Source of the DNA: Candidatus Saccharimonadota bacterium
Lineage (GTDB): Bacteria; Patescibacteriota; Gracilibacteria; UBA4473
Reading direction: 5' to 3'
Assembly (NCBI GenBank): GCA_965228485.1
Contig: OZ245819.1
Span: 1,110,001-1,142,000 of the forward strand
Length of the DNA: 32,000 bases
The notes below the pieces were generated by a model. That model ran no database searches, had not been told where the DNA came from, and was given only the letters and a program-made list of their open reading frames with translations. The stretch's first letter is position 1, and the number at the start of each line of letters is the position of its first letter. The translations under genes and the position numbers were made by a program. Shown piece after piece: positions 1 to 26,741 of this stretch.

Positions 1-1200
1 AGAAAGACCGATCCAAAAGATGTTGATCTCGATATTTTTTGGGAAGTTTGGCATTTGACGGAATCAAATTTTCTTCATCCAGAACGTTTCAAAACTCAAG
101 AACAAGTTTATGGTGCTACGAGAGGTTTAGTGGACTCATTAGAAGACCCCTATACGATCTTTTTGACGCCAAATGAGACTGAAGAATTTGATGAATCAAT
201 GTCGGGAGAGTTTCAAGGAATTGGAGCAGAAATTGATAAACGAGATGGACAAATTATTGTTGTCAGTCCGCTCAAAGGTTCTCCAGCAGAATCAGCGGGA
301 CTTAAAACTGGGGATATTATTTTTGAAGTTAATGGAGATCCAACCCATGGTTGGTCTATTACTGAAGCCATCACCAATATTCGTGGACCAAAAGGAGAGA
401 AGGTTGTTCTGACTGTTATTCGCGAAGATGAAAGAAAGCCTGTGGAGATTACTATTGTTCGAGATAGTATTGTTCTCCCAACTTTGGAATGGGAAATAAA
501 AGATGATGTGGCAGTGATTTCTGTGTACCAGTTTGGAAATAATGTAGTGAAAGATTTTAAAAAAGCGGTAGAAGAGATTGTTCTAGAAGCTCCAGAGGGG
601 GTAGTCATTGATTTGAGAGGTAATGGAGGAGGACTCCTTGACGCGAGTATCAAAATTATTTCTGAGTTTTTAGAAAATGAAGTAGTCGTTAAAACCAGTG
701 GAAGAAGATTTGGAGATAGTGGTGATTTGATGAGTGGACGAGATGGAGTATTCTTGGATATGCCATTAGTGGTGATTGTTAATAGAGGATCAGCGAGTGC
801 TTCAGAAATATTTGCTGGAGCGATGCAGGATTATCGTCGAGGGGTGGTAGTCGGAGAAAAAACTTTTGGTAAAGGTTCAGTTCAAAACTTGGTGCCTTTG
901 TCTGATGGTTCTAGTTTAAAAGTGACGGTGGCTGAATGGTTAACGCCTAAAGGTCGATCTATTCAGGATAATGGAATTACTCCAGATGTGATTGTTGAGC
1001 CAAGTGATGAGCCAGAAATTGATCTTATTTTGGATAAAGCTTTGTCTTTGTTTGGATCTGATGAAATGAATGAAATTTTATCTCAGCCAGCGCCTCCTAT
1101 TGAAGCAGAAGAGTCAGATGTATCACAAAAACTTGATTCTGCCCCTCAAGTTGATAATAGTGAGAATCAGCTTGATGAATCAGATGAAATTGCAGAATAG
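1..1200 (+). CDS. ctpA: C-terminal processing (tail-specific) peptidase, S41 family with PDZ domain; 5' end cut by the window edge
   Basis: Frame 1 is open from base 1 (RKTDPKDVDLDIFWEVWHLTESNF...), so the track Met at 55 is internal. It has a PDZ-like segment (GIGAEI...GSPAESAGLKTGDIIFEVNG), S41-type motifs (DLRGNGGG, GSASASEIFAGA, TFGKGSVQ) and an acidic low-complexity C-terminal tail. Confidence 0.9.
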   Translation, partial: RKTDPKDVDLDIFWEVWHLTESNFLHPERFKTQEQVYGATRGLVDSLEDPYTIFLTPNETEEFDESMSGEFQGIGAEIDKRDGQIIVVSPLKGSPAESAGLKTGDIIFEVNGDPTHGWSITEAITNIRGPKGEKVVLTVIREDERKPVEITIVRDSIVLPTLEWEIKDDVAVISVYQFGNNVVKDFKKAVEEIVLEAPEGVVIDLRGNGGGLLDASIKIISEFLENEVVVKTSGRRFGDSGDLMSGRDGVFLDMPLVVIVNRGSASASEIFAGAMQDYRRGVVVGEKTFGKGSVQNLVPLSDGSSLKVTVAEWLTPKGRSIQDNGITPDVIVEPSDEPEIDLILDKALSLFGSDEMNEILSQPAPPIEAEESDVSQKLDSAPQVDNSENQLDESDEIAE

Positions 1201-2497
1201 AGTTTATGGAATTGTTTTTGGGATATTGTTGTCGCTTGTTGTGACGGAAGTTTCTGCAGCTCCGCGTGTTATGCGATTGGTTTTTGATGATCGAATTGTA
1301 ACCGTTAATTTTCAGGCTAATCCAGATCTTTTGGAGCAAACTCCTCAGCATTTTATAAAGATTGGATCGCAGTTAGTTCCAGCAGATTTTGATGAGAATT
1401 TGCCTTTGGCTTCCACTATTTGGCCTATTGAGACAGAATTTATAACAACGGTTTCAGAAGATAACCTGCGTGAATACTTTGATACTACTTCACTTTTGGG
1501 AGGTGGGGCAAAAGATCCGATTGAAATTACGATTAATGAAAATGATATTATTCGGATTAGTGGTCGTCCACGAATGGGAACTTTTGAGGTTGATTTTCCC
1601 CAGTTGGTCTTGCTTATGAATGCGGCTATTGCTGAAGAGCAAAATTATGTTCGAGTTCCGTCTCACAAAGTTTTTAATCCTGTGGTTGTTGATCAAGATT
1701 TGAAAGAGAGAGGAATTAAGGAAATAATTGCTATTGGGCGATCAAATTTTACGGGTTCGTCTCGAGCTCGTATTCAGAATATTATGGCTGGGGCGAGAAA
1801 ATTTAATGGTTTAATTGTTTCTAGGGGAAGAAACTTTTCTTTTAATCATACCCTTAAGTCTGTGAAAGAACGGGATGGTTTTGTAAAAGAGTTAGTAATT
1901 AAGGGAAATACAACAGAAAAAGAACTTGGAGGTGGTGTTTGTCAGGTCTCGACCACCGTTTATAGAGCGGCGTTTGAGGCAGGGCTTCCAATTTTGGATC
2001 GAAGAGCTCATTCCTATGCAGTGCCTTACTATAAACCTCATGGTTATGATGCGACTATTTACTTGGGAGGGCAGGATTTTCGATTTAAAAATGATACTCC
2101 TGGAGATATCCTAGTGCAGTCCTTTGTACAGGGAGAAGATTTATTTTTTGTTTTATATGGGACTCGAGATGAGCGTAAAGTTGCTTTTGAAGGTCCTTTT
2201 ATTTCTGATTATCGTCCAGCACCAGAACCAGAGATATATGAAACTACAGAGCTATCCCCTGGAGAGGTTGTGGAAGCTAGTCCTGCTCATGATGGATTTA
2301 GAACAGAATGGGTCCGAAGGGTTATCAAAGAGGGAGAGCTTTCTGAGGAAAATTTTGTTTCCACTTATAGGCCTTGGGCGGCTAAAATTCTTAAAGGAGT
2401 TTCACCAGAAGAATTAGCTGAAAAAGCTATAAAATTGCCTCTGCCTTTAGATGAAGCAGAGCCTATAAATATCGAAGTAGAAGTTGGTCTGAATTAA
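1184..2497 (+). CDS. VanW-family secreted protein
   Basis: It carries the VanW-domain signature GGGVCQVSTTVYRAAFEAGLPILDRRAHSYAVPYY. The ATG at 1184 gives a signal-peptide-like N-terminus (MKLQNRVYGIVFGILLSLVVTEVSAAP) and a 17-nt overlap with the ctp stop. The track start at 1070 lies inside ctp. Confidence 0.85.
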   Translation: MKLQNRVYGIVFGILLSLVVTEVSAAPRVMRLVFDDRIVTVNFQANPDLLEQTPQHFIKIGSQLVPADFDENLPLASTIWPIETEFITTVSEDNLREYFDTTSLLGGGAKDPIEITINENDIIRISGRPRMGTFEVDFPQLVLLMNAAIAEEQNYVRVPSHKVFNPVVVDQDLKERGIKEIIAIGRSNFTGSSRARIQNIMAGARKFNGLIVSRGRNFSFNHTLKSVKERDGFVKELVIKGNTTEKELGGGVCQVSTTVYRAAFEAGLPILDRRAHSYAVPYYKPHGYDATIYLGGQDFRFKNDTPGDILVQSFVQGEDLFFVLYGTRDERKVAFEGPFISDYRPAPEPEIYETTELSPGEVVEASPAHDGFRTEWVRRVIKEGELSEENFVSTYRPWAAKILKGVSPEELAEKAIKLPLPLDEAEPINIEVEVGLN

Positions 2498-2558: not shown

Positions 2559-5099
2559 ATGGATTTAAAATTTCTCCTGCAAGCTATAAAACAAAAAACA
2601 AATAGAAAAATAATCTGGTCAGTATTTTTTCTGTTAGGTCTTTTTTTTGCTGATTATACGATTTTGGCTCAAGAGGCTGATCAAGCCCTATTAGAAGAAA
2701 TCTCCGTAGTTGAAGAGGTTCAAAACAATGAAGATTTAGCGCCAATAACTCCGGAAGAGGTTACCGTTGTTCCTACTCAAACGGTTCAGCCATTGCAGAT
2801 TATTGTTAATGATCCAGAACCAGGGTTACCTTTTTCAGGAGAAATATTGTCGAGACGATATTTCGAGGCAGAAAAAGTTGTACTTCAACTTTTTGATGAT
2901 GACGGTTTTATTGTTTGGGAAGGTGAAATTCCTCTGGGAGAAGAGGAGGTGCGGGTTATTCCTTACTATTTTGTAGATGTAGAGGCTAGAGGTGAGTTGC
3001 GTTTGGTTGTTAAGGCAGAAGGTTCGGATGATGAAACATTGGCCATGGGAGAGCGCCCTGTGGAGTTTCCTTACGGAACAGAAACCACAAAGATAACGGA
3101 TGTCAGTTTGGTTTTAGAAGAAGATAACACCTCTATGGTTTTTATAAATTTGGAGGCAGGAGCTTTTCATGAAGCTTTTGTGCCTCATATAAAAATTTAT
3201 AAAGAAAAACGATTGAGCGAGAATCTTTATTATGAATACGATGATTTGCCGGTTAAAGTTTCTCCTCAGGAGCGAAAAAAAATTGGCTTTAAGGTCGATA
3301 AGTTTCTTCCCACGGGATTGTATGTTTTTGATATAGGGCTCAAGGAATTTCGAACAAAAGCTCCAGTGCCAGGGTATTTTCAGAGAACTATTTTTAGCCC
3401 AGGAGACTATATTCGTTTGACTCGAAGTAGTGTTTTTCATTCCGAAAAGACGCCAGAATATATTAATTTGAATTTGCAGGGAGTTGCTTTTTTTGAAGTA
3501 AATCAGCCATTGAAAGCCACGGTTGCTGTCGTGGATAAAAAAGACTTAGTCATAGAAAAAAAGGCAGATATTGAGTTGGAGAATGGTTACTTTAACCATA
3601 CTTTGCAATTTTCTTTAGCCGATATTAGATCAGATTTTACAGGGAAAATAGACCTCCGTTCAGAAAAAGGTGAAGCCTTGGCGAGTAAAGATTTTAACTT
3701 TTCAGATATTGAAGTAGAGGTTTTTGAGAACTTTAAAAACTTACCACCAGTGCAGAAACCAAAGGAGGAAGATACAAATCCCCCTGCTCCAGAAGTAACA
3801 AGCGTTGTAGAATCATCGTCTTCTCAAGACTGGATACAGATATTAAAATCAAATCAACTTTATATTTATGCTGGAGGAGGGATCTTATTGGTTATTATTT
3901 TGTTGATTGTGGTACTTTCTCGTCGTCATAATTTATGGCTGATAACCGCAGGAGCTTCTGTAGCGATGCCTGTTATTTCCTGGGGAATTGCAATTCCTTT
4001 TTATCCGACGGTTGAATGGATACAGCCAAATACTACGGCATTATCAGCTTATAACCCGGATTCAGAGTCTGGTTTTGAAATTATGAGAGTTGAAGGACGA
4101 GTTTATAATGGTTTGACTGGAGAAAGTTTTTTTAAAACGGATATTATTAAGGAATGGCGGATTAATTTTGTTGATTCTCAGGGGAAACTTTTTCAGTTTA
4201 GTCTTGAAGAGGATTTCTTAGCTGATGGACTTAATTTTGAAAAGAGTGTTCGAACCGGGTTTTATCGTTTCTACCTAGATCTAAGCAAAATCGAAGGAGC
4301 TTTTCCTTTAGGGGAAGAATCTCCATTTGTTTTTTCTGAGGGGAATTGGAGGACTCAACTTTTATTTAAATTTTATGATGCAGAAGCCTCTGTGAATACT
4401 TGGTACGCTACGGATTTTAGTGAAGACCTAAGTCGATTTGTTATTGATCGAACAGCTCCTCAGGTTTCGCTTAGAATGCTTGGAAAAGATGGTGAACCGA
4501 TTCCTAATGGAACTTTTACTAACCAGCCTGTAGAAGTGGAAGTTTCTTGTCAGGATACAGGATCTACTTGTCTTTGGGAAAAGAAAAAATTTCCAATTTT
4601 TGGTAATTTTTGTGCTGATGGAACGAAGTGTGATAACACAGCGGCCCGTGAAATTGTTGTTTGTGATTTAGCTCAAAACTGTGAGTCTCATGAGATTAGT
4701 ATCGATTACTATGATCCAATTCCACCAAAACTAGATTTCTTTCAGCTTGGTGGAGAGGGAGTACAAAGGGTGGAATCTGCCTATGAAATGATGCTCCGTT
4801 ATCAGGATCCAAGGAAGACGGTGGAGATTGATGATAATTTATTTTTGCCTCATGTTTGTGCCGCAGAATCGAGTGGATTCTTTTTGGATAAAGCAGAAAA
4901 TCGATGTTATCCAAAACGTTATCCTTGTGTTTTTAAAGATAAAGGTATTTTTGTACGAGGAGAAAATACTGGACATGGTTGTGCTCAGTCTTGTCCGATT
5001 GGGTTTGAGTTCAAGAATGGAAGTTGTCAGGTTCCTTGTAATAATCAGAGTTTTTTATCTGGGGAGATGTGTTTTCCTTTGATTTTTTCAAACAATTAA
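2559..5099 (+). CDS. Large uncharacterised envelope protein 'A1'. It has an N-terminal signal/anchor, an A-type ectodomain, a hydrophobic hairpin and a Cys-rich C-terminal domain.
   Basis: This is an 846-aa ORF. Hydrophobic segments are IIWSVFFLLGLFFADYTILA near the N-terminus, then LYIYAGGGILLVIILLIVVLS-RRHN-LWLITAGASVAMPVISWGIAI mid-protein. The first ~440 aa resemble the 409-aa ORF at 28992-30221. The last ~210 aa contain many Cys. Confidence 0.8.
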   Translation: MDLKFLLQAIKQKTNRKIIWSVFFLLGLFFADYTILAQEADQALLEEISVVEEVQNNEDLAPITPEEVTVVPTQTVQPLQIIVNDPEPGLPFSGEILSRRYFEAEKVVLQLFDDDGFIVWEGEIPLGEEEVRVIPYYFVDVEARGELRLVVKAEGSDDETLAMGERPVEFPYGTETTKITDVSLVLEEDNTSMVFINLEAGAFHEAFVPHIKIYKEKRLSENLYYEYDDLPVKVSPQERKKIGFKVDKFLPTGLYVFDIGLKEFRTKAPVPGYFQRTIFSPGDYIRLTRSSVFHSEKTPEYINLNLQGVAFFEVNQPLKATVAVVDKKDLVIEKKADIELENGYFNHTLQFSLADIRSDFTGKIDLRSEKGEALASKDFNFSDIEVEVFENFKNLPPVQKPKEEDTNPPAPEVTSVVESSSSQDWIQILKSNQLYIYAGGGILLVIILLIVVLSRRHNLWLITAGASVAMPVISWGIAIPFYPTVEWIQPNTTALSAYNPDSESGFEIMRVEGRVYNGLTGESFFKTDIIKEWRINFVDSQGKLFQFSLEEDFLADGLNFEKSVRTGFYRFYLDLSKIEGAFPLGEESPFVFSEGNWRTQLLFKFYDAEASVNTWYATDFSEDLSRFVIDRTAPQVSLRMLGKDGEPIPNGTFTNQPVEVEVSCQDTGSTCLWEKKKFPIFGNFCADGTKCDNTAAREIVVCDLAQNCESHEISIDYYDPIPPKLDFFQLGGEGVQRVESAYEMMLRYQDPRKTVEIDDNLFLPHVCAAESSGFFLDKAENRCYPKRYPCVFKDKGIFVRGENTGHGCAQSCPIGFEFKNGSCQVPCNNQSFLSGEMCFPLIFSNN

Positions 5100-7288
5100 T
5101 GATGTGGCGAATACTTAGCTTACTATTAGTACTAATCAGCAATGGAGCGATGGCTCTATCGGTTCCAAGTTCTGGAATTGACTGGGAAAAATCAAACATT
5201 GCTATCGAGGCTTTTGAGTCACCATTTATTGAAAATCAGGCATTGTTTCGTTGTTTTGGTAAACAGTTGGAAAATCTGCCAATAGAAATTCCTCTAAAAG
5301 ATATTGGTTTTGGCTCTAATAGCCCGGGACCTACGACACTAAAACAGCAGCTAGAGGCTCATGAATGTTTTCAGGCAGCGGGGACTTATCAGTTGAATTT
5401 TACGCTCTTCGATTTGGCTGGGAACCATAATAGCAAGTCTCAAATCCTCGTATTAGAACCAGGGGCAGTAGAGGTAAAAAATACTCGTATTGATGTTGAT
5501 AATGTTCAGCAGTATCGAACAGGTGAAAGTGATTTTATTAGAAAACTTACCAGCGATTGTGCAACGGAAAATCTAGTTGCAAATGGGTTGGATACTTGTA
5601 ATTTGAGAGTAAGTTTTCATGATGAGTTTGGTAATCGTGTGACGAAAGATTACTTGAAATCTATAGAGATGGGATTTCCTGGATTAGATTCTAGGATTAA
5701 AAAAATTAGAATTGTCAGTAAGACTGATAACCCTTTTCATCAGGGAGTTCGTTTTGAGGACGGGAAAGTTACCAAAGTATTTTCAGGAAAAAATGCAAAA
5801 TTGGATCATGCATATGATTTTGGAATTAGAAGCTGGGCTCCCACATTAAATATTGGAAATGGAGGGAGTTTTCCGTTTTTACAGGTTACTTCTGTGAAGC
5901 TTCCACTTCGTTTGCAAATGGATGTGGTTGAAGTAGGGAGTGAAACGATTAAGACCGTTGATACTGAGTTTGAACTTCGATTTCGACCTTGGGTAAACTT
6001 GGTGATTGATCCAGAGTGGTCTTTGGAACGGCATTTTTACGCTTCGCTTCAAAGTTGGTCTCCACTAAGTATTGTTCCAAGATTTACTTCTGGAGTTTTA
6101 CAGCCAGATCGAGTGGCCATTTCTTTTCGGGGGGTGGGAAAAGAAGGGATAGAAGTTTTATTAAAGGATAAAACGACTTCTCCAAGTGAAAGTTATCAAG
6201 TTTCTCTTGATAAGGGCGCAGAAAAGCCTGTCGGTTTACAATTTTTAGTAAAGTCTTTACAGAGTGATTTGAAGGCTATTTTCCAACTATTTGGAAATGT
6301 GGCGTATGTCTTTAGGGATCCTATCTATGGTCCTAAATTGATACAGTATCCAATGACTATTATGACGGGAGAAACGATAGACATGCCTGTACTTGCTGAA
6401 TGGAGAACTTTACAAGTTGGGGCGGATGTTGAAGGAAAAGTCTTAACAGACTCTCGTATCATCAATGATCCTTCAACCATTTTCTTTTCACAGAGTCAGG
6501 CAGATATGCGTGAAGAATTGGTTCGAAATACTTATCGTTTGGTTCGTGGAATTGAGCCAAAGGATACCGAAGCTATTAATATTGATACAGATCTTAATAC
6601 TGGAGTTTACTATGTGGCGAATCGAAACGTAAAATTGACTTCTAATGAAAAAGTTGGAGATATGATTTTTGGTGGCGGAAGACGGACTATTGTTATTGAA
6701 AATGGGAATCTACTGATTGATCGAAATCTCCGTTATGAATCAGATGAAGATTCATTGGGGATTATTTTGATCAGTAAAGAAGCAAATTCTCGCACCACTG
6801 GTAATGTGTTTATAAATAATGAAATTAAGTATTTTGTGGGAACTTATTTTCTTGACGGGAGTCTCATGAGTACCCTTGAAACTGACCCTATGAGACTTTC
6901 GGTTACCGAATCTATTCCAAAAAGATCTGAAACAAATAATGATAACCCGAATGCTCCGCTCGGATATCAGCTGGTATTGGATGGGACTATTATTTCTCGA
7001 AATACTTGGGGAGGCGCTTCTTCTACTCCAATTAGAGATCCATGGGATAAGGAAGTTGATTTCGAGACAGCCGCTCGATATGACCTAGACTTTATTCGTC
7101 GTTATCAGCCAACCAGAGATACAGATAATGAGATTGTTCCGGATGAGTACAATGATTACTGTGTTAAAGTTGAGGATCAGTGTGATGAAAATCCTCATGC
7201 CTTTATTATCCGTCCAGATGGGAGAGTGAAGCATAATACGCCTCCAGGATTCTCTCATGTTTCGAGTTTATCTTTAACGTCAGAATAA
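5099..7288 (+). CDS. Large uncharacterised secreted protein 'B1' (adhesin-like) with a conserved ~290-aa C-terminal 'B' domain
   Basis: The ATG at 5099 overlaps the A1 stop (TAATG) and gives a signal peptide MMWRILSLLLVLISNGAMALS. A middle segment looks like a bacterial Ig-like repeat (NGLDTCNLRVSFHDEFGNRVTKDY). The C-terminal ~293 aa are clearly homologous to the ORF at 30832-32000 (-). Confidence 0.8.
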   Translation: MMWRILSLLLVLISNGAMALSVPSSGIDWEKSNIAIEAFESPFIENQALFRCFGKQLENLPIEIPLKDIGFGSNSPGPTTLKQQLEAHECFQAAGTYQLNFTLFDLAGNHNSKSQILVLEPGAVEVKNTRIDVDNVQQYRTGESDFIRKLTSDCATENLVANGLDTCNLRVSFHDEFGNRVTKDYLKSIEMGFPGLDSRIKKIRIVSKTDNPFHQGVRFEDGKVTKVFSGKNAKLDHAYDFGIRSWAPTLNIGNGGSFPFLQVTSVKLPLRLQMDVVEVGSETIKTVDTEFELRFRPWVNLVIDPEWSLERHFYASLQSWSPLSIVPRFTSGVLQPDRVAISFRGVGKEGIEVLLKDKTTSPSESYQVSLDKGAEKPVGLQFLVKSLQSDLKAIFQLFGNVAYVFRDPIYGPKLIQYPMTIMTGETIDMPVLAEWRTLQVGADVEGKVLTDSRIINDPSTIFFSQSQADMREELVRNTYRLVRGIEPKDTEAINIDTDLNTGVYYVANRNVKLTSNEKVGDMIFGGGRRTIVIENGNLLIDRNLRYESDEDSLGIILISKEANSRTTGNVFINNEIKYFVGTYFLDGSLMSTLETDPMRLSVTESIPKRSETNNDNPNAPLGYQLVLDGTIISRNTWGGASSTPIRDPWDKEVDFETAARYDLDFIRRYQPTRDTDNEIVPDEYNDYCVKVEDQCDENPHAFIIRPDGRVKHNTPPGFSHVSSLSLTSE

Positions 7289-7320
7289 CTTTCGTAATTA
7301 TATAGCTAAGTCGTTATAAT

Positions 7321-8331
7321 GTGCGTATGTGGTGGATTTATGGAGGAATAGGTTTTTTGTCAGGAATAATAGCGACTCTTGCCGCGGTAAAATTTTTTCC
7401 TCAATGGGGACTCTTGGATTTTCCGGAGAGATATGGGCTTAAACGAGATAAAATACCTTATCCAGGGGGGATAAGTTTACTGGTTTTTATTTGGGGATTA
7501 TTACTTATAGATTGGTCTTTTTGGGTTGTCGTACTTCCCGCAACAATTATTGGTTTAGTTTCCTTTATCGATGATCGAAATCCTATTTCTGCCAAATGGC
7601 GTTTGGGATTACAGATTTGGATGGCTATTTTTGTTTGGATTATGGGAGTCAGGATTTATTATGTTACGAATCCGTTTGCCGATACTAATTTTGAAATAAC
7701 CAATATTTACCCACATTTTGCTTTATTTTTAACCGTTGTTTGGATTGTTTCTATTCAGAATGCTTCAAACTGGTTTGATGGTTTAAAAGGCCTTTCTTTA
7801 GGCATTTCTGGTATTGGTTTTTTGACGCTTGGATTACTTGGGGTTTTGCGACCAGAACTCCTCTTTGATGTTCAGCATACAACGCTGACTTTGGCCAATT
7901 TTTATTTGGGAGGCTTGGTGTTTGGGGCTTTTGTTTGGTATTGGAGAGGGAAAATCCTTTTGGGAGATTCTGGTTCACAAGTATTGGGCTTCCTTTTAGC
8001 GGTTATGGCAATTTTTTCAGGAGCTAAAATTGCTACTACTTTACTTGTTTTGAGTTTGCCGATATTAGATTTCTTTTGGGTGATTTTTAGGAGAATTGTT
8101 ATTGATAAAAAATCTCCTCTAAAGGGAGATAAACGACACTTCCATCACCTACTTTCTCAACAGTTTGGAGAGAGGCTAGCAGTATTAGTTTGTTTAATTT
8201 TTTCCTTGTTTTTTGGAGCAATAGCTCTTTTCTTTAGTGGGGAGATTAAACTCTACTGTTTTCTATTTTTAGCAATTATTTTTGTGATTATTAACTTTTG
8301 GCTTTACCAAAAAATACGATTACAAAAATAG
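7321..8331 (+). CDS. Polyprenyl-phosphate N-acetylhexosamine-1-phosphate transferase (glycosyltransferase family 4, WecA/TagO-like rather than MraY)
   Basis: This is a multi-pass membrane protein. It has the motif NASNWFDGLKGLSLG (NxxNxxDGxDGL type) and the WecA-type motif GDKRHFHHLL. A perfect TATAAT at 7315-7320 sits just before the ATG at 7327, so the true start may be a leaderless ATG at 7327 rather than the GTG at 7321. Confidence 0.8.
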   Translation: MRMWWIYGGIGFLSGIIATLAAVKFFPQWGLLDFPERYGLKRDKIPYPGGISLLVFIWGLLLIDWSFWVVVLPATIIGLVSFIDDRNPISAKWRLGLQIWMAIFVWIMGVRIYYVTNPFADTNFEITNIYPHFALFLTVVWIVSIQNASNWFDGLKGLSLGISGIGFLTLGLLGVLRPELLFDVQHTTLTLANFYLGGLVFGAFVWYWRGKILLGDSGSQVLGFLLAVMAIFSGAKIATTLLVLSLPILDFFWVIFRRIVIDKKSPLKGDKRHFHHLLSQQFGERLAVLVCLIFSLFFGAIALFFSGEIKLYCFLFLAIIFVIINFWLYQKIRLQK

Positions 8332-8345
8332 TGACAGATTGGATT
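8332..8345. repeat. Left arm of a perfect 14-bp inverted repeat (TGACAGATTGGATT) bounding the GC-rich nhaA cassette
   Basis: This arm is the exact reverse complement of 10013-10026 (AATCCAATCTGTCA). It starts one base after the wecA-like stop codon (TAG at 8329-8331). Confidence 0.9.
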
Positions 8346-8594
8346 GAACCTCAGCCCATCGACTCACCTCCAGGAGCAGTACCGTGAAAGGAGGATTTTG
8401 TCGATGGGTGAGGCGAACTCTAGTACTGGGGAGTCTAGAGTTCTATCCTAGCACGGGGGCTTGTGCTAGGAATAAGAAACAGGGCTGGACTTTAGAGGCG
8501 CCAGGAGTCCTTTTGCTCAGGCCGCGTACGCCCTGAGCGAGGAAGTCCGCTTCCGTGTCGGGGGATTTTAGGTCCCGACAGGGAGGAAGACTTC
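8346..8594. other. GC-rich, hairpin-dense noncoding segment: candidate structured RNA or 3' UTR of unknown class
   Basis: The segment lies between convergent stop codons. It has stops in all frames and no ORF of track length. One line (8521-8580) counts 39/60 G+C. It forms seven consecutive stem-loops: 8349-8413 (5+9 bp outer plus CCTCC/GGAGG inner), 8415-8443 (9 bp), 8447-8470 (8 bp), 8487-8510 (5 bp), 8515-8538 (7 bp), 8541-8554 (5 bp with UCCG loop) and 8556-8580 (7 bp). Confidence 0.4.
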
Positions 8595-9839
8595 TTATGG
8601 GAGGTTGATCCTTTCTACCCGGCAGATTTTTCCGGCAACCAATGAGATCGGAACTCCAGCGAAACTGAAGACCGCGCCCATTTTTCCGGCTGCCATTACC
8701 AGTGCTTTTCCCTTGAATGCCACGTCTGCGACAAATAAGGCAACGGTAAATCCGATACCGGCGACACATCCTACTACGAATAGGTCGATTGTGCGCATTC
8801 CCTGAGGTAGACCAAAGGCTTTTTCTCCGAGCCACCCCATAAACAAAATACCCAGGGGTTTGCCAACAAGGAGTCCCAGCAAAACGAGCCAGGTAGCTTC
8901 GCCAATCGAAGCAAAGACCACTCCAGCATTTGCCAGTGCAAAGAAGAATAGCACGATTTCCACGACCCCACCGAGACGGTGCTCGAAGGCGTTGAGGGTG
9001 TCATCGAGAGACTTCTCCTCACGGGCGAAGAGACCCAGGTCAGATTCTGCATGAGGCATCGTTGGGATGATAGGAAGCAGTCCTAGCGCTGGATGAATGC
9101 CAGCGAACTGGAACCCCAACCAGCTGATGGAGCCACCAATCAGTAAGTATGGCCAAAAATTCAGCATTTTCAGTCCTCGGTTGAGGATGAAGTAGTTGAA
9201 GATCATAGCCGCTACTGGAAGGAGCATGTAGCCGATTTGGATTTCTCCTTGTGGATAGAAGACTGCCAGGATGATCAATCCAGCTGCATCATCAGCGATG
9301 GCCAACAGCAGTAAGAAGGCCACAGCTGGGTGATCCTTCCCAAATACCCAGCGGCCTACGAGATAGCTGAACGCGATGTCAGTCGCCGTCGGGATAGCCC
9401 AGCCATTCCCAACCTCTTCCAGAACACCCCAGAAGGTGGCCATCACGATGTAAACAGCGATAGGCCCGATCATGCCACCAGCGGTAGCAATGAGTGGGGT
9501 TGCTGCCTTTTTGCCACGGAGGCTTCCGCCTTTAAGCGCAACGGCTTCCCAGACTTCCTTTCCCGCAATCGCGAAAAACAGCGACATCAGGATATCGTTG
9601 ATCAGGAAGTGAACAGTCAGTTCTCGGTGTCCATGGTGGAGATGCCCGACCCAGTCGTTGGTCAGGATAATGTGGTGGGTGAAAGCGTAGTAGCTCTCAT
9701 AATTTTTATTGGCCCACCACATGGCCAAAAGGGCTCCCAGAATCAGGAGTAAGGAGTTTTCGCGGACGAAGGCCCACACTCCTCTCTTTGCTTGAGTTTC
9801 TGCCGACATGACAATTTTCCTGTCTTTGCCTCTCTTCAT
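8595..9839 (-). CDS. nhaA: Na+/H+ antiporter NhaA
   Basis: This is a 414-aa polytopic membrane protein with the NhaA hallmark LLLLAIADDAAGLIILAVFYP, which corresponds to the paired Asp of E. coli NhaA. Its G+C is far higher than its neighbours (33/60 and 35/60 in two counted lines). Confidence 0.92.
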   Translation of the reverse strand: MKRGKDRKIVMSAETQAKRGVWAFVRENSLLLILGALLAMWWANKNYESYYAFTHHIILTNDWVGHLHHGHRELTVHFLINDILMSLFFAIAGKEVWEAVALKGGSLRGKKAATPLIATAGGMIGPIAVYIVMATFWGVLEEVGNGWAIPTATDIAFSYLVGRWVFGKDHPAVAFLLLLAIADDAAGLIILAVFYPQGEIQIGYMLLPVAAMIFNYFILNRGLKMLNFWPYLLIGGSISWLGFQFAGIHPALGLLPIIPTMPHAESDLGLFAREEKSLDDTLNAFEHRLGGVVEIVLFFFALANAGVVFASIGEATWLVLLGLLVGKPLGILFMGWLGEKAFGLPQGMRTIDLFVVGCVAGIGFTVALFVADVAFKGKALVMAAGKMGAVFSFAGVPISLVAGKICRVERINLP

Positions 9840-10216: not shown

Positions 10217-11443
10217 TTAAAGTTGAGAGACGAGTGTTTTAAAATGTCGTCCTTTTGTTTCATAGTTTGGGTATTGATCGAAGCTTTTTCCAGCTGGGGA
10301 AAGGAGACAAACTTTTCCAGAAGGAGTAAGACTGAGTGCTTTTGAAACAGCTTCTTCTAAGTTATTGGTAATAACGAAATCTCTTTTTGGAAAAGTCTCT
10401 TTGATTTTTTTTGCTACAGGTGACTCCGTTAGGATAGTGGTTGTTTCTGGAGAAACCGTGTCTAATGTTTCAAAGAGTATATCAAAACTACCGCCTCCAT
10501 CAGTCCCCCCCAAAATTAACGTTCCGAGCTTTTTATTAAAAAATTTTATAGCCGCGATTACGGCTTCCGGATTTGTAGCAATAGCATCGTTAAAAAATGA
10601 TATCCCTTGTTTTGTATTGACGAACTCTAGACGGTGTTCTGGGAGTTGGAGTGTTTCAAGGCTTTCTAAAAAGTCTTGGTGAGTAAATTTCTTACCAATA
10701 ATTTCTGTTACTGCTGGGATAATCCCTAAATTACTTCGGAAATGTTCGGCCATAAAAATATGGTTTTCGAGGATTGCTTCGGTTGAGAGCGATTGAGTTT
10801 CTTGGATTTTTGCTTTTGTAGGAAAAGTATCGATGGTTGACTTTCCTAGAGGGGTGGTAATGCAATAGTCTTCAGTGTTTTGATGTCCCCAGAGTTGGCT
10901 TTTGGCACGACCATAATTCTGGAGTGTTTTGTGCCGATCTAAGTGATCGGGAAACAATCCAAGAAAGACGGCAATATGAGGAGATTTTTGGAGTATTTCT
11001 AGTTGATAACTAGACATTTCTAAAACGATATAGTCGTATTTTTTGGCCTTGAAGTCATTAAAAATTTCGAGTATTGGGTGTCCAATATTACCAGCGCAAA
11101 CAACGTTTAATCCAATGTGATTTAACCAGTTTGTTAGAGCTAGAGTAGTGGTTGTTTTCCCTTTTGATCCTGTAATTCCAATAACTTTTTTTCGTTCTTC
11201 TTCGGCAAGATTATTTAGAAACCAATTTATTTGATTCGTGACTTTGAACTGATGTTCTTTTGGGAGGGAATGGGGATCAATCCCGGGAGTACAGAAAATC
11301 AAATCATACTTATCCCACTCAGGTTCTGTGGGATGTGTTTTTTGATCAAAAATACTAATTTTGATCTCTGGATAAGCGTTCTGGAAGAATTTTTCGGTAG
11401 ATTTTCCTTCTCTTCCGTAGCCGTAAATAAGAATACTATTCAT
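10217..11443 (-). CDS. murD: Mur ligase of the MurD type (UDP-N-acetylmuramoyl-L-alanine--glutamate ligase)
   Basis: It has a MurD-like N-terminal Rossmann segment (ILIYGYGREGKST), the P-loop VIGITGSKGKTTTT and the C-terminal motif LLSPAGKSFDQYPNYETKGRHF. Confidence 0.85.
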   Translation of the reverse strand: MNSILIYGYGREGKSTEKFFQNAYPEIKISIFDQKTHPTEPEWDKYDLIFCTPGIDPHSLPKEHQFKVTNQINWFLNNLAEEERKKVIGITGSKGKTTTTLALTNWLNHIGLNVVCAGNIGHPILEIFNDFKAKKYDYIVLEMSSYQLEILQKSPHIAVFLGLFPDHLDRHKTLQNYGRAKSQLWGHQNTEDYCITTPLGKSTIDTFPTKAKIQETQSLSTEAILENHIFMAEHFRSNLGIIPAVTEIIGKKFTHQDFLESLETLQLPEHRLEFVNTKQGISFFNDAIATNPEAVIAAIKFFNKKLGTLILGGTDGGGSFDILFETLDTVSPETTTILTESPVAKKIKETFPKRDFVITNNLEEAVSKALSLTPSGKVCLLSPAGKSFDQYPNYETKGRHFKTLVSQL

Positions 11444-12773
11444 TAGTGATTGTTGTTATCACTGTTTTGAGTCGAGTCCAGATGTTACTTGGAATTTGAT
11501 GAGAATTCAATGTTTGGTAGTTGAAATTTTGTTCTGGGACTAAGTCATCTCGAATGGACTTTACTTCTGGAAAGTTCTTTTCAGCCAAAATCATTGATTG
11601 TCTTACTTCGTTGATAGTTCCGACACATTCAAAAGGTTTACTTTCTGTTTTTCCGAGTAGTTGATCAAAGGTTTCTTTAAGTTCTGTTTTTTCAAATAAA
11701 TTTTCGCCAAAGATTTGAGTGAGTTCTTCACGCTCAATAAATGGGGCAAGAATGGTAAATACAAACGCGCATTTTGGACACTCTCCACACCAGAAAAATT
11801 CTTTTTTATCACCGGTAAGGTGAAAATTTCGATTACAGGAACTGAAAGCGTTTTTGTACTTTTCCCAGCCTAATTTACTAAATATCTCAGCAATAAAGAG
11901 TTCGTCTAATGGTCTTAGGGCTGAAAAGTAATGTAGGCTAGGATGAATGAATTCTTCTATGTAGTGCTGCAGTTGTCTCTCGAAATCAAACGATTTTGAA
12001 TATTGATGGTTTATATCTAAATCTTGATAGTGTGTAGTGGCTTCGTTCGCTGAATTCTCATTTGAGAAAGCGATGTATTTTTTTCCTGTTAGTAGAGCTG
12101 TACAGATTGATAAAAATCCCCAGATAGCCGAAATAGGGATATGTCCGTTGTAAGCACCTTCCTTATTAAGTTCTAAAAGTGATTTATCGATATGCCTTTT
12201 GATCGTTATATGTTCATGATCTGGATTATCTTTCCGTATGATTTCTAATGTTTTTTCGAGTCCTGGGTAAGATCCAACGGTCCAGGTACAAAAGGGGATT
12301 TTAGCTTTTTTTAGTAATTCAATAGTGGTGAGAGAGTCTTTTCCTCCTCCAAGAGGCACAATAACCTCTGGTTTTAAAGATGAAGTTTTTGGTGTATTTG
12401 GAGAAGCATTATAAGGAAATTCGGGACGAATAATTGGAATCTGATTCTGATAAGAAAATTCTCCTAATCCGTGAGTATAAGTAGTGTTAAAGAATTCACT
12501 CTGTGCTTTTCCAAAACCTTGTAGATATTCTTCTGGAAGATTTATTTTTTTAGGAATCAAGGCTTTGTAGTAGGAGATTCCAGCCATTAGCCAGAGGCCT
12601 TCAAAAGCTTTGTTTAGGGCTTCTCGGTCGATCGTTGAAATGAACTCAAAGTCAAATTCAAAAGTCTCTGTGAAGTGATATTTATTATCAATAGCATATT
12701 CACAAGACAGGATTTTTTTTGAAGGATCCCAATTGAAATTTTCAAAGCTAAATATTTCGGCTCTATGGGGCAT
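11436..12773 (-). CDS. PP-loop ATP-pyrophosphatase-like protein coupled to murD; possibly a MurL-type UDP-MurNAc-L-Ala-L-Glu epimerase
   Basis: This 445-aa ORF has a PP-loop-like motif (VPLGGGKDSLTT) about 140 aa from the N-terminus and a Cys cluster (WCGECPKCAF). Its stop overlaps the murD start by 8 nt (ATGAATAG). The functional call is inference from context and size, not from a recognised signature. Confidence 0.55.
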   Translation of the reverse strand: MPHRAEIFSFENFNWDPSKKILSCEYAIDNKYHFTETFEFDFEFISTIDREALNKAFEGLWLMAGISYYKALIPKKINLPEEYLQGFGKAQSEFFNTTYTHGLGEFSYQNQIPIIRPEFPYNASPNTPKTSSLKPEVIVPLGGGKDSLTTIELLKKAKIPFCTWTVGSYPGLEKTLEIIRKDNPDHEHITIKRHIDKSLLELNKEGAYNGHIPISAIWGFLSICTALLTGKKYIAFSNENSANEATTHYQDLDINHQYSKSFDFERQLQHYIEEFIHPSLHYFSALRPLDELFIAEIFSKLGWEKYKNAFSSCNRNFHLTGDKKEFFWCGECPKCAFVFTILAPFIEREELTQIFGENLFEKTELKETFDQLLGKTESKPFECVGTINEVRQSMILAEKNFPEVKSIRDDLVPEQNFNYQTLNSHQIPSNIWTRLKTVITTITNE

Positions 12774-19736: not shown

Positions 19737-21530
19737 ATGATGAGGATTCTTGGCTTTGTATTTATAACGGTCGGAATTTTTGGACTCAGCCACTATCTGA
19801 TTAATCAGAAATTGCCTGAGTGGGAATCTCGTACAATAGCGGTTATAAATGAAGCTCGAGAAGCGGAACTGGATGTTCAGGCTTGGGATCGGGTTGTCGC
19901 AAAAGCCGATCAAGAATTGCCTTGGTTTTATCCTTTTTCAAAGGTAAAAAAGGTCGTTAGGGAAGCTCGAACAATGGTCTATCGTACACATAATTTTGCG
20001 GATACGGTGAATATTGGATTTTCATTTGAAGATCGGGCGATTAATTCAGAAGGTCTTTTTGATCTCTTTACTTTTATGTCGGATCAATCAGCTTCTTTGG
20101 ATTCTATTATTGATGACATTCATAGCTTACCGTTATCTTTTTTGGATGAAGAAAAGAAAGTTTATGTACTTTCGGAATTGGCCTGGCTAGAATACTTAGA
20201 TCAGCAGCTTAAAGATGCTCAGACCTTTGAAAAAATTTTTAAGAAATTTGTGAAGGATGAAGAAAGAGTTTTAGTGCTTTTACAGAATCAAAATGAACCT
20301 CGTTCTACGGGAGGATTTGTTGGAAGCTTAGTACTTTTCGATTTTAAGAAAGATATTATTAATTGGCGATTTCTTGATATTTACGAACTCGATCGTTTAG
20401 TCCCGCCAGAAGCACAGACTCCAGCACCACCATTTTTTCACGGCTTATCTAAAACTATTTCACTTAGAGATGCTAACTTTTGGCCAGATTTTAGAACTAC
20501 CGCATCTGAATATAGATATTTTTTTGATGTTGTTGGAGAAGAGCCTCCTAAAACAATCGTGGCTATAAATCTTAACACGATCAAAGAGGTTGTAAATTTA
20601 GTAGGACCTATACAATTGGAAAAATGGGATTTGGAGTTAGATTCATATAACTTTGATGTGGTGCTACAGTTTCTTGTAGAGTCAAAAATTACTGGAAGAT
20701 TTGCGGTAAAGGAGCCTGTTGAGATATTTGCGGCTAAGCTCTTTAGTCCAGAAGCTTTATCTTCTTTGTCCTGGGAGGCTTTGAGCACTTTTGATGTTGA
20801 TGGATTTTTGTCTCAGAAAAATATTCTAGCCCATTCTCAGAATGTCTCTTTACAAAAGTTATTTGAAAAGTGGCGAATTGATGGTCAGTTGCGTCAGAAA
20901 AAAGAAGCGAATAACTTTTTGCATTTTGATTTTATATCGATTGGAGCGAATAAGTCTGAGAAATTTATGTGGACTAAGCTGATTCATGATAGCGAAATTC
21001 TTCCATCAGGGACGGTTAATAATACGCTTAAAATTCGAAGAACTCATGCGTTACGGCCAGGAGAGCTAAATGATTTACTTGGGACTAATAAAATGAGTCA
21101 AAATGTTCGGGAGTTAATTGATGAAACGCTTTGGTGGAAATTAGGAGCGGGGCAAAATAGAACGGTTTTAAGAGTTTGGGTACCACGAGAAGCTCGTTTA
21201 TTATCACAAAATAATCCTAGTGGAGTTATTCGAGAAATGGTCATTGCTGGTCATGATGATTTTAAAGTTTTAGAAATTCCTATGAATGTTCTTCCGAGTG
21301 AAACTTTGGATATTTCTTTAGTTTATGAGACTCGTATTGAAAGAGGTTCTTCGGCTTGGCGTCCTTATTTCTTGGAATTAATAGGGACTCCTGGAAAAGA
21401 TAAAACAGAGTTTTTATCTACTATTTCGACTCCTCAAAATAGTCAGTTTACCGCTGAAACCCAGAATATTGGGCTTCCTGTTTCTTTGATTGATCAGGAT
21501 TTTAGAACCGTTGTTGAATTTAAAAAGTAG
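19737..21530 (+). CDS. Membrane-anchored protein resembling the DUF4012 family
   Basis: It has an N-terminal TM segment (ILGFVFITVGIFGLSHYLI) and the motif LLQNQNEPRSTGGFVGSLVLFDF, which I recall as the DUF4012 signature (QN..E.R.TGGF.GS). The family call is from memory only. Confidence 0.55.
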   Translation: MMRILGFVFITVGIFGLSHYLINQKLPEWESRTIAVINEAREAELDVQAWDRVVAKADQELPWFYPFSKVKKVVREARTMVYRTHNFADTVNIGFSFEDRAINSEGLFDLFTFMSDQSASLDSIIDDIHSLPLSFLDEEKKVYVLSELAWLEYLDQQLKDAQTFEKIFKKFVKDEERVLVLLQNQNEPRSTGGFVGSLVLFDFKKDIINWRFLDIYELDRLVPPEAQTPAPPFFHGLSKTISLRDANFWPDFRTTASEYRYFFDVVGEEPPKTIVAINLNTIKEVVNLVGPIQLEKWDLELDSYNFDVVLQFLVESKITGRFAVKEPVEIFAAKLFSPEALSSLSWEALSTFDVDGFLSQKNILAHSQNVSLQKLFEKWRIDGQLRQKKEANNFLHFDFISIGANKSEKFMWTKLIHDSEILPSGTVNNTLKIRRTHALRPGELNDLLGTNKMSQNVRELIDETLWWKLGAGQNRTVLRVWVPREARLLSQNNPSGVIREMVIAGHDDFKVLEIPMNVLPSETLDISLVYETRIERGSSAWRPYFLELIGTPGKDKTEFLSTISTPQNSQFTAETQNIGLPVSLIDQDFRTVVEFKK

Positions 21531-22595: not shown

Positions 22596-23030
22596 ATGAG
22601 ATCATTCTTGCTTGGTTTAGTTGTTTTCTTCGCTAGTTTTCTAGCGGCTGGTTCTGTTTTTGCTACTTCCGGATCAGGGGGCGGTTCTGGCGGTGGCGAA
22701 GTACCTCCAGCTATTACTAACTTTGTAATGCCAACTAATACCTTTAGTATGGGAGGTTTATGTGTTGGGAATTCTTGTGGACTAGAACTTGGAACCGGAA
22801 GTTCCAATGATGTTATTTGGAGAGGTATTCGAGTTCTAGCCAGTGTGGCTGGGACGGTAGCAATTCTCCTTTATATTGTTGGAGCCTTTTTTCTTATTGC
22901 TTCTCAGGGGGATGAAAATCAACTTAACAAAGGGAAAACTATTGTTATCTATACCAGTCTAGGATTGGTGTTTGTATTTGGAGCTTATATCATTGTTCAA
23001 TTCCTTCTGGCTTTAATATTTACGGCTTAA
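22596..23030 (+). CDS. Small secreted two-TM protein with VirB2/TrbC-like (type IV secretion pilin-like) architecture
   Basis: It has a signal peptide (MRSFLLGLVVFFASFLAAGSVFA), a Gly/Ser linker, TM1 (VLASVAGTVAILLYIVGAFFLIA), a short charged loop (SQGDENQLNKGK) and TM2 (IVIYTSLGLVFVFGAYIIVQFLLALIF). Confidence 0.5.
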   Translation: MRSFLLGLVVFFASFLAAGSVFATSGSGGGSGGGEVPPAITNFVMPTNTFSMGGLCVGNSCGLELGTGSSNDVIWRGIRVLASVAGTVAILLYIVGAFFLIASQGDENQLNKGKTIVIYTSLGLVFVFGAYIIVQFLLALIFTA

Positions 23031-23432
23031 ATGAAAAAACTATTATTCTTGGCTTTGGTGTTAGTAAGTGTAATGCACATTCCTTCTGCAGAGGCCTATG
23101 TGTTGAAACTTCAAGAACCCGTTGGAAGTATGTCAGTTGTGGCTGGGCCTAATGGTTTTAGCTTGATCTCAAATTATATTGCTGGAGTTTACCGATATAT
23201 GGCGAGTATTGTTGGGATTATTTGTGTACTTTATATCGTTTTTTCCGGGATTCAGATTATTCTTGGGGGAGCTAATAGTGAGTTAGTAAGCCAGGCAAAA
23301 ACAAGAATTTTGCAGTCTATTCTTAGTCTAGTATTACTTCTTGGAACCGCTCTACTACTAAAAACGGTAAATCCTTACTTCTTTGGAGGTGGAGGTTCTG
23401 GCATTCTGGGAATGATTTTGGGAGGACTCTAA
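23031..23432 (+). CDS. Second small secreted two-TM protein, VirB2/TrbC-like paralog
   Basis: The start codon directly abuts the previous stop (TAAATG). It has a signal peptide (MKKLLFLALVLVSVMHIPSAEA), TM1 (ASIVGIICVLYIVFSGIQIILGG), a loop (ANSELVSQAKTR), TM2 (ILQSILSLVLLLGTALLL) and a Gly-rich tail. Confidence 0.5.
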   Translation: MKKLLFLALVLVSVMHIPSAEAYVLKLQEPVGSMSVVAGPNGFSLISNYIAGVYRYMASIVGIICVLYIVFSGIQIILGGANSELVSQAKTRILQSILSLVLLLGTALLLKTVNPYFFGGGGSGILGMILGGL

Positions 23433-26207: not shown

Positions 26208-26741
26208 ATGGACCAACAAAACCCTCAGAATCCACAAGGTCAAATGCCACAGCAACCCGTTTCCGGGGGGGATATGCCTGCACAAACTGGACAACCTGCG
26301 GGAGGGAACTCTCAAGGGCAAGTTCCAGCACAAAGTGCTGCACCTCAAGTACCTATGGATCCTAATGCGAGACCAGGACAGCTATCTCAGAGGACTGGTC
26401 ATATGTTCAGTATTCCGCCACATCCAAATACTCAGTTTGATGAAGCACAGTTCTTAGCTTTATTGGAGGGATCTATTTCCCTAACTATGGAGGAAAAGCA
26501 ACGGGTAATTGATGCTATTCCTCGCTTGTCTATTGAACAAATTAATGAGCTTATTTCTATCTTTGAAGAAGAGAGACAGAAATTCTCAGAACTGGAAAAA
26601 GAATTTGCTGATGATGTAGCAAAATTAAAGGCTGAACGAGAAAAAGAAATTGCTATGACCGAATCTAAACAAGAAGAAGAAAGTGAAGCTGAAGCAGATG
26701 CGGCAGCGGCTGAAGCTCTGAAAAAACAAATGGGGCTTTAG
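26208..26741 (+). CDS. Hypothetical protein with a Gln/Pro/Gly-rich N-terminus and an acidic coiled-coil C-terminus
   Basis: This 177-aa ORF sits where rpmA (L27) often follows rplU, but it shows no L27 motifs. The central segment is LTMEEKQRVIDAIPRLSIEQINELISIFEEERQKF. Confidence 0.6.
   Translation: MDQQNPQNPQGQMPQQPVSGGDMPAQTGQPAGGNSQGQVPAQSAAPQVPMDPNARPGQLSQRTGHMFSIPPHPNTQFDEAQFLALLEGSISLTMEEKQRVIDAIPRLSIEQINELISIFEEERQKFSELEKEFADDVAKLKAEREKEIAMTESKQEEESEAEADAAAAEALKKQMGL

Follow-up and report, generated by a model that had tools for sequence, protein, structure and literature searches.

Two overlapping genes, here called A1 and B1, lie on the forward strand of a 32,000-nucleotide (nt) stretch of contig OZ245819.1 (assembly GCA_965228485.1), hereafter the window. 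A1 is the window's founding member of a protein family A and encodes 846 amino acids (aa); B1 belongs to a second family, B, and encodes 729 aa. The last base of the A1 stop codon TAA (5097-5099) is also the first base of the in-frame B1 ATG at 5099. The 729-aa product of B1 is on record in public collections as an exact match. The original prediction for this DNA had described proteins of 846 and about 729 aa overlapping by TAATG, both starting with signal or anchor sequences. The open reading frames (ORFs) and the sequence bear this out, and hydropathy reveals signal-like N-termini in A1 and B1. The proteins had also been called giant; at 846 and 729 aa they are large only. The related loci referred to below (prefix L) belong to metagenome-assembled genomes (MAGs) labelled Candidatus Altimarinota, Gracilibacteria and Peribacteria, i.e. 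the Gracilibacteria-class branch within the candidate phyla radiation (CPR, Patescibacteria). These relatives are CPR genomes of ~1.3 Mb, in agreement with the small-genome bacterium that had been predicted. The features of the two genes are the following.

2559 to 5099, + strand: A1 gene, 846 aa (ORF)
2559 to 2669, + strand: A1 predicted signal peptide, aa 1-37, from hydropathy (basic n-region, hydrophobic core, putative cleavage between ILA and QE)
2670 to 3860, + strand: A1 ectodomain I, beta-rich, ~370 aa plus a Pro/Glu-rich linker, from alignment with the orthologs and with the paralog A2 (see below), to which this part is common
3861 to 3923, + strand: A1 predicted transmembrane (TM) helix 1, aa 435-455, at the hydropathy maximum of 2.77, followed by the basic loop SRRHN
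3939 to 4001, + strand: A1 second hydrophobic segment, aa 461-481, from hydropathy, ending in WGIA before I
4002 to 5096, + strand: A1 ectodomain II, aa 482-846, with all 14 Cys of the protein at aa 664-838 (4548 to 5072)
5097 to 5101, + strand: TAATG stop/start overlap of A1 and B1 (sequence)
5099 to 7288, + strand: B1 gene, 729 aa (ORF 5069/5099 to 7288 with in-frame ATG)
5099 to 5155, + strand: B1 predicted signal peptide (MMWRILSLLLVLISNGAMA before LS), from hydropathy and similar in homologs
5174 to 6364, + strand: B1 stalk, aa 26-422, about four beta-sandwich (Ig-like) domains in the AlphaFold2 model
5546 to 5668, + strand: Big_1-like segment of the B1 stalk, ~aa 150-190, from the B-family profile
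6410 to 7285, + strand: B1 C-terminal domain, aa 438-729, with a capping helix, ~4-5 beta-solenoid rungs, a small subdomain and a PPPGF end

The A family was found to have no match in Pfam, NCBIfam, PHROGs or PDB sequences, starting from A1 or from the family, nor did a profile of nine A sequences give any meaningful match in the family and PDB databases. In a word-indexed homology search, A1 and a four-sequence A profile retrieved A1 itself only. The nine A homologs nevertheless follow one plan: a signal peptide ending in an AxA-like motif before Q, ectodomain I, a variable Pro/Glu linker, a TM helix, a short Arg/Lys-rich loop, a second hydrophobic stretch, a conserved F-P-x-V-E-W motif and ectodomain II. 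The signal segments of the orthologs end in LALAQ, GNAQ, TLAQ or AHAQ, and the A1 signal peptide would be cleaved at the corresponding point. TM helix 1 is conserved in 9/9 homologs, as is the succession of basic loop, hydrophobic stretch and AxA-like end (WGIA, LLA, AVYA, AVDA, SASA, VFA, ASA). The last 200 aa contain 10-14 Cys in all nine; 12 of the 14 Cys of A1 are invariant in the four-sequence alignment and 7 in the nine-sequence alignment. DUF4215 is absent from the Cys-rich part of A1, and one of the nine homologs matches it at E=0.014, which does not reach the threshold. In L025 and L026 the second half of A is expanded, the L025 protein reaching 1457 aa with Laminin_G_3/DUF7483.

The positive-inside rule and the Cys distribution suggest that both ectodomains of A lie outside the cell. 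The second hydrophobic segment of A1 could act as an internal signal peptide or else be the second TM helix in a hairpin. This stretch is laid out like a signal peptide, so that A may be cut there into an N-terminal piece that is tail-anchored and a Cys-rich piece that is free. The paralog A2 ends with a basic tail right behind the first helix and resembles that N-terminal piece made on its own. A natural split of A was also considered in L025 (a Logan assembly), whose A homolog shifts frame twice around the TM helix region (521..720), each time at an A/T homopolymer run. When all frames were read, TM helix 1 was found in the third frame between the two runs, which points to a frameshifted or mis-assembled fused gene, from assembly error or as a pseudogene. 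The L025 frameshifts therefore lend no support to an internal signal peptide or a split of A.

No match above threshold was obtained for B1, B2 (its paralog, see below) and their homologs in Pfam, NCBIfam and PHROGs, and B1 has no Pfam match at E<=0.1. B1 was also unmatched in the word-indexed search, because its cluster is represented there by a 50-aa fragment. The original prediction of two unrelated, uncharacterised families is consistent with the absence of matches for A and B in Pfam, NCBIfam, PHROGs and PDB sequences. B1 starts with MMWRILSLLLVLISNGAMALSVPSSG, and its homologs start likewise, which points to a Sec-type signal without prepilin motif. It ends in ...PPGFSHVSSLSLTSE with no hydrophobic segment, and hydropathy indicates no other such segment in the protein; B1 would therefore have no membrane anchor of its own.

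The AlphaFold2 model of B1, built on an alignment of 30 sequences, has a mean predicted local distance difference test score (pLDDT) of 80 and shows the signal helix followed by four beta-sandwich domains to about aa 420. When the B model was compared with the PDB by Foldseek, only strings of Ig-like domains were matched: ice-binding adhesin repeats, CfaB/Saf pilins, complement MG domains, integrin legs and the S-layer proteins SbsB and EA1. At the sequence level, the B-family profile finds a Big_1 domain in the adhesin FdeC (4e9l; E=3.7e-5, ~70 positions), and Pfam Big_1 is found below its gathering score in 7 of 30 B homologs (best E=4.1e-5). The Ig-like segment originally predicted in B1 is thus recovered; by its sequence it would be an Ig-like, Big_1-related segment, with matches short of the score for Big_1 membership.

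The C-terminal domain of B is modelled with confidence. In the full model of B1 its pLDDT is >90; modelled alone from 23 sequences, it reaches a pLDDT of 88 and a predicted template modelling score (pTM) of 0.87. Several of its Arg, Asp, Asn, Tyr and Gln residues are invariant, and the small subdomain has two conserved Cys. A profile of the B1 and B2 C-terminal domains retrieves 848 clusters (50% identity) at E<=1e-3, 82 of them at E<=1e-30. The domain lies at most 8 residues from the protein end in 99 of 100 complete matches. Its carriers range from ~600 to 3259 aa (median 755) and their N-terminal parts vary, with Ig-like, PKD, DUF4215 and TPR domains; P0010, a long member, has DUF4215 at E=1.8e-11. 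A fixed C-terminal position on varied proteins is typical of a shared retention or sorting module, and by analogy the B domain may act as one. The N-terminal 410 aa of B1 are also matched by 87 of the best 150 family representatives, so the full-length form of ~700-790 aa is common. At least three B copies are present in MAG CAYFJZ01, and two each in CAZQFO01, CAYFOO01 and the window. Gracilibacteria loci that use an alternative code (table 25) also encode B-related proteins.

The C-terminal domain has no sequence match in the PDB, no tblastn match in 50,697 phage records and no significant Foldseek neighbour in the PDB or BFVD. Among the non-significant neighbours, the best in the PDB is ComZ of Thermus thermophilus (6qvi, E=0.47, probability 0.21), a pilin with a beta-solenoid domain, followed by beta-helix lyases (E>3); the best in BFVD is a phage pectinesterase (E=0.24). 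We read the modelled domain as a short beta-solenoid that represents an undescribed family. ComZ and the parallel beta-helix lyases, matched at E>=0.24, may have a beta-solenoid-like core in common with it. B differs from them in its N-terminus, which is not that of a pilin, and in its much smaller number of rungs, and it has no sequence homology from which catalytic sites could be transferred.

These neighbours bring up two other functions for B. The ComZ match, together with the reliance of CPR bacteria on type IV pili (PMC11452946, PMC8080830), would favour a type IV pilus tip or competence protein. This is very improbable: the match itself is insignificant, the N-terminus of B1 is an ordinary Sec signal peptide in which neither a prepilin leader (G before F/M, then E) nor a hydrophobic N-terminal alpha-1 helix is present, and no pilus genes adjoin A-B in any locus read. 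The second function is enzymatic, the C-terminal domain being for example a pectate-lyase-like beta-helix displayed on the stalk against the envelope of a host or prey. All its structural neighbours besides ComZ are beta-helix enzymes (PL6 alginate lyases, pectate lyases, YbhC and the phage pectinesterase), its polar residues are strongly conserved, and a predatory lifestyle is described for the related Absconditabacteria (PMC8080830). We nonetheless consider an enzyme improbable, as every beta-helix match has E>=0.24 and a template modelling score <=0.17, the solenoid has only ~4-5 rungs, no Pfam or PDB enzyme family is matched by sequence, and the extreme C-terminal position on very varied proteins is more typical of an anchoring module.

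Both families have a second member in the window, at its opposite end.

30832 to 32000, - strand: B2, last 388 codons inside the window, full protein 755 aa (P0005), from homology to B1
30269 to 30829, - strand: YfiH/Cu-oxidase_4-like gene between B2 and A2 (Pfam PF02578, E=1.5e-25)
28992 to 30221, - strand: A2, 409 aa, with predicted signal peptide, ectodomain I, C-terminal TM helix and KKNKRF tail (ORF, hydropathy and profile)

It had been predicted that the C-terminal region of B1 matches the partial ORF at 30832-32000 (-) and that the N-terminal half of A1 matches the 409-aa ORF at 28992-30221 (-), and both similarities were recovered. B1 aligns with the partial ORF (30832-31998) at E=5e-70, with 37% identity over 354 aa. 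As the complete B2 also has the N-terminal motifs and architecture of B1, its sequence identifies it as a full-length paralog. The pairwise match of A1 with A2 is weak (E=2e-4, 22% identity over 335 aa); with a profile of A1 and three orthologs, the E-value for A2 is 4e-20 (profile positions 35-381), which makes the paralogy real, if distant. A2 corresponds to the N-terminal half of A1 only, the alignment ending just past TM helix 1. The prediction that the pair recurs in the window holds in that both paralogs are present, and B2 and A2 belong to one tightly packed same-strand gene run, which is counted in favour of a module. It does not hold for the arrangement: the minus-strand order is B2, YfiH-like gene, A2, i.e. 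reversed, so the second copy is neither adjacent nor coupled, and A2 is half-length.

The pairing of the two families was surveyed by running the A profile on all ORFs of the fetched loci. A lies directly upstream of a ~700-790-aa B on the same strand in 11 loci including the window (the others being L001, which is the same as L019, L004, L009, L018, L021, L022, L023, L025, L026 and L028). At the junctions of the adjacent pairs, the two genes overlap by up to 11 nt or are separated by up to 36 nt, and eight other pairs have junctions like that of A1/B1 (ATGA, TGATG, 8-11 nt overlaps, 5-17 nt gaps). In L024 and L027, A is ~3 kb from B on the other strand. Counting these two, 13 of the 15 informative loci have A at a distance of ~3 kb or less from B. 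The flanking genes vary: B is followed by the gene of a glycosyltransferase family 4 protein (GT4), CTP synthase, ribosome recycling factor, valyl-tRNA synthetase or an M17 peptidase, and A is preceded by VanW or by an unrelated ~760-aa membrane protein. The pairing persists at A-A identities down to 21-25%.

An improbable explanation is that A and B are functionally independent and that their adjacency reflects shared gene-order ancestry and operon compaction in small genomes. It would account for the collinearity of L001 with the window over ~20 kb, for a B family far broader than A and for the housekeeping gene that separates the second-locus pair. It accounts less well for a pair that is kept where both flanks change, which therefore amounts to more than inherited collinearity, for the survival of the pairing at such low A identities, for tight junctions in all adjacent pairs and for the 13 of 15 loci in which A remains at most 3 kb from B. 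The adjacency had been proposed to be more than coincidence, and its persistence where synteny breaks agrees with this. Of the conserved two-component module originally suggested, the pairing stands in 11 loci, whereas the second locus is uncoupled and the B family is wider than A.

The ~760-aa membrane protein directly upstream of A (L009 3883..6165, L028 595..2886; 42% identical, no Pfam match) is absent from the window and may be an accessory component of the module in some lineages.

Divergence also sets the pair apart from its neighbours. Identities between window proteins and their orthologs in five syntenic loci are:

S41 protease: 61-67%
VanW: 52-64%
GT4: 55-62%
A1 whole: 23-33%, the range found for the full-length A orthologs upstream of B
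B1 whole: 30-37%
A ectodomain I: 19-34%
A ectodomain II: 28-35%
B N-terminal half: 25-30%
B C-terminal domain: 37-50%

A and B thus diverge about twice as much as the neighbouring proteins (23-37% versus about 51-67% identity). The most variable parts are A ectodomain I and the B N-terminal half, and the most conserved parts of the two proteins are A ectodomain II and the B C-terminal domain. This pattern fits exposed, fast-evolving distal parts and a constrained proximal core.

Surface proteins of the same clade have been described in general terms. For its members, elaborate or fibrous cell surfaces were reported along with large extracellular proteins, partly Cys-rich, for which a part in attachment is presumed (PMC4736985, PMC8080830). 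The large extracellular proteins described from Peribacteria/Peregrinibacteria (Anantharaman et al. 2016, PMC4736985) and the large surface proteins known from Vampirococcus (PMC8080830) are like A and B in having a signal peptide, a predicted extracellular location, Cys-rich character, no functional annotation and a proposed role in attachment. Their Cys-rich regions, weakly similar to a Myxococcus Cys-rich repeat, share some ground with the B family through the DUF4215 of P0010. They are 1200-4000 aa long in those descriptions, unlike the mid-sized A1 and B1. The two papers describe these proteins generically, and in the passages covered by the search neither the A family nor the B C-terminal domain nor the A-to-B pair is defined. 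Within the part of the clade literature covered by our search, no named family or account of the pair was found, which leaves two undescribed families.

Among better known systems, the Big_1 adhesins of the invasin/intimin/FdeC type share with B a string of bacterial Ig-like domains. They have an N-terminal outer-membrane beta-barrel anchor and a C-type-lectin-like tip, neither of which is found in B: its short Sec signal peptide is directly followed by beta-sandwich domains, and its C-terminal domain, with no match to the invasin/intimin tip by PDB sequence or Foldseek, has a different, unmatched fold. A sortase motif LPx[TSA]G does not occur in B1, and its sole match in A1 is at aa 90. Homology to phage tail fibres or tailspikes was not detected in PHROGs, by tblastn against the phage records or as a significant match in BFVD. 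In plan, A-B resembles multi-Ig adhesins and anchored S-layer proteins, while falling short on the Big_1 threshold, SLH, LPXTG, prepilin, DUF4215 and phage homology.

We propose, with confidence and doubt about evenly divided, that A1 and B1 form a co-expressed, lineage-specific cell-surface module of Gracilibacteria-class CPR bacteria. The overlapping stop and start codons would provide matched synthesis of A and B. B would be exported by Sec as an anchorless protein, its elongated stalk consisting of about four Ig-like domains and its conserved C-terminal domain being beta-solenoid-like. A would be its membrane-embedded partner: after removal of a cleavable signal peptide, ectodomain I would lie outside, followed by the TM helix and the short basic loop, and the second hydrophobic segment would place the Cys-rich ectodomain II outside too. 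Cleavage of this segment would leave A as two pieces, one tail-anchored and A2-like, the other free and Cys-rich. The C-terminal domain would keep B at the envelope, held there by A, a general envelope component or both, and A ectodomain I and the N-terminal domains of B would face outward. Export is supported by the confinement of the 14 Cys to the predicted outside part of A, by the signal-like N-termini and by the TM pattern. The most likely role, in which we have less confidence than in the module itself, is attachment or recognition, of a host cell or a substrate, at the cell surface, in line with the adhesin or attachment role originally predicted; it is suggested by the architecture, by the rapid evolution of both proteins and by how members of the clade live (PMC4736985, PMC8080830, PMC11452946). 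In sum, the gene overlap, the paralogy, the kept adjacency, the domain layout, the absence of known domains and the faster divergence are observations, and export, topology, cleavage, contact between A and B and adhesion are deductions. A bolder version appears rather unlikely: A and B would be an undescribed attachment or predation-related surface apparatus specific to Gracilibacteria-class CPR bacteria, in which the B C-terminal domain is a new fold docking a family of variable stalks to the envelope. A would be made as one precursor and cut at the conserved internal signal peptide into a tail-anchored piece, the A2 form, and a secreted, disulfide-rich piece, resulting in three surface polypeptides from the operon.

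Several points weigh against the proposed module. The signal peptides and the topology were read from hydropathy and inspection, and the physical link between A and B is a putative one. In L003 and L020 the partial ORF upstream of B is not an A by profile (<=660 nt available; the L020 ORF is Cys-rich). The long Peribacteria B homologs (L002, L005-L008, L010-L012) are without an A by profile, so A is not strictly needed by B. With 848 clusters, the C-terminal domain family is also far wider than A, and its ligand cannot therefore be A alone. At the second locus, A2 lacks ectodomain II, which leaves B2 without an ectodomain II partner there. The neighbourhood (S41 protease, VanW, WecA-like GT4, MurD, MurL, YfiH) suits envelope building as well as adhesion. 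Finally, in the Peribacteria loci L005 and L006, three genes of an unrelated ~550-aa family, with a signal peptide and a C-terminal TM helix, are found nearby upstream of B.

The members of this ~550-aa family (L005 2652..4418; L006 1227..2897 and 6827..8473) are unannotated and have the same topology as A2. In L006 they lie immediately upstream of both B copies, and in L005 a 343-aa ORF intervenes. They were considered as distant relatives of A and rejected, the hhalign probability being 0.5%; only topology is held in common.

The genes immediately flanking A1/B1 bear on a structural alternative.

55 to 1200, + strand: S41/PDZ C-terminal processing protease (Pfam), upstream
1070 to 2497, + strand: VanW-domain protein (Pfam), upstream
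7321 to 8331, + strand: GT4, WecA/TagO-like, below NCBIfam cut-offs, downstream

According to this alternative, A and B have a role in envelope structure or biogenesis: B would be S-layer-like or form a sheath, its C-terminal domain binding a secondary cell-wall glycopolymer, and A would tether or organise it at the membrane. We judge this unlikely, though it has more in its favour than the other functions considered for B. The block of S41 protease, VanW, A, B and GT4 is kept in 5-8 loci; the S41 protease-VanW order recurs in L001, L004, L009, L018 and L021, and GT4 follows B in eight loci. MurD and MurL are encoded further downstream of A1/B1, and the YfiH-like gene lies between B2 and A2. 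The S-layer proteins SbsB and EA1 (SLH and Ig-like), found among the Foldseek matches of the stalk, resemble B as exported Ig-like multidomain proteins with one conserved terminal module, and the location of B beside the gene of a WecA/TagO-type polymer-initiating enzyme recalls wall-polymer-anchored S-layer proteins. The invariant polar residues of the C-terminal domain are as expected of a ligand-binding site, and this domain is common to many paralogs per genome. However, no SLH or other known wall-binding domain was detected by Pfam or NCBIfam in A1, B1, A2, B2 and 30 B homologs, and the S-layer structural matches are generic Ig strings. GT4 is missing after B in L023-L027, though the A-B pairing stays. 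The roughly twofold divergence relative to the neighbours suits exposed interaction proteins better than the lattice of a structural core, with the reservation that S-layer proteins also evolve fast.

Some further observations concern the surroundings of the module. The listed VanW ORF shares its first 131 nt (1070..1200) with the end of the S41 protease gene, and the true VanW start is probably a later Met ahead of the hydrophobic segment, at ~1175. Downstream, MurD is followed by a MurL-type UDP-MurNAc-L-Ala-L-Glu epimerase (10217..12773, - strand; NCBIfam E=2.8e-104, under the equivalog cut-off), and the same pair occurs in L020. This suggests a route to the peptidoglycan stem peptide in which L-Glu is added and then epimerised. 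An NhaA-type Na+/H+ antiporter gene (8595..9839, - strand; Pfam E=2e-58) lies in a stretch whose G+C content is 0.48, versus ~0.38 elsewhere in the window; recent horizontal acquisition is possible. A 597-aa DUF4012 membrane protein (19737..21530, + strand) adjoins a Wzy_C/O-antigen-ligase-like gene.

Two adjacent small proteins of 144 aa (22596..23030, + strand) and 133 aa (23031..23432, + strand) have signal-like N-termini and hydrophobic helices. They match Pfam T4SS_pilin at E=1.7e-5, just under the gathering score, and E=6.1e-7, above it, respectively; the 133-aa protein also weakly matches the Mbov_0395-family conjugal pilin-like model. The pair looks like tandem VirB2/TrbC-like pilins. 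No further type IV secretion system genes were found among the window ORFs scanned, the scan covering part of the ORFs. A 177-aa Pro/Gln-rich protein without family match is encoded at 26208..26741 (+ strand), between the genes of ribosomal proteins L21 and L7/L12. In the closest relative genome (OZ246423.1, L019), the syntenic block has immediately upstream of it the gene of a 1908-aa protein (1..1437, - strand) with a C1q domain, a domain that is unusual among bacteria.

The long ORFs of the window are intact under table 11. An alternative genetic code was considered and rejected, the sole TGA stop among 28 genes tallied being that of a TspO gene whose product matches its profile as far as position 143 of 145. 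A phage or mobile origin was likewise rejected, with no PHROGs match and no tblastn match in the 50,697 phage records.

A life attached to other cells is presumed for CPR bacteria, whose surface molecules are, to our knowledge, almost unknown outside Saccharibacteria. The analysis of the A1/B1 locus defines two unannotated protein families, an A-to-B pair kept in about a dozen divergent genomes and a widespread C-terminal domain, present in 848 sequence clusters, without known structural relative. The likely payoff is moderate, because the function of the proposed surface module is still deduced and many such lineage-specific surface proteins exist. Overall, A and B are concrete candidates for the machinery of host contact or envelope assembly in these bacteria.

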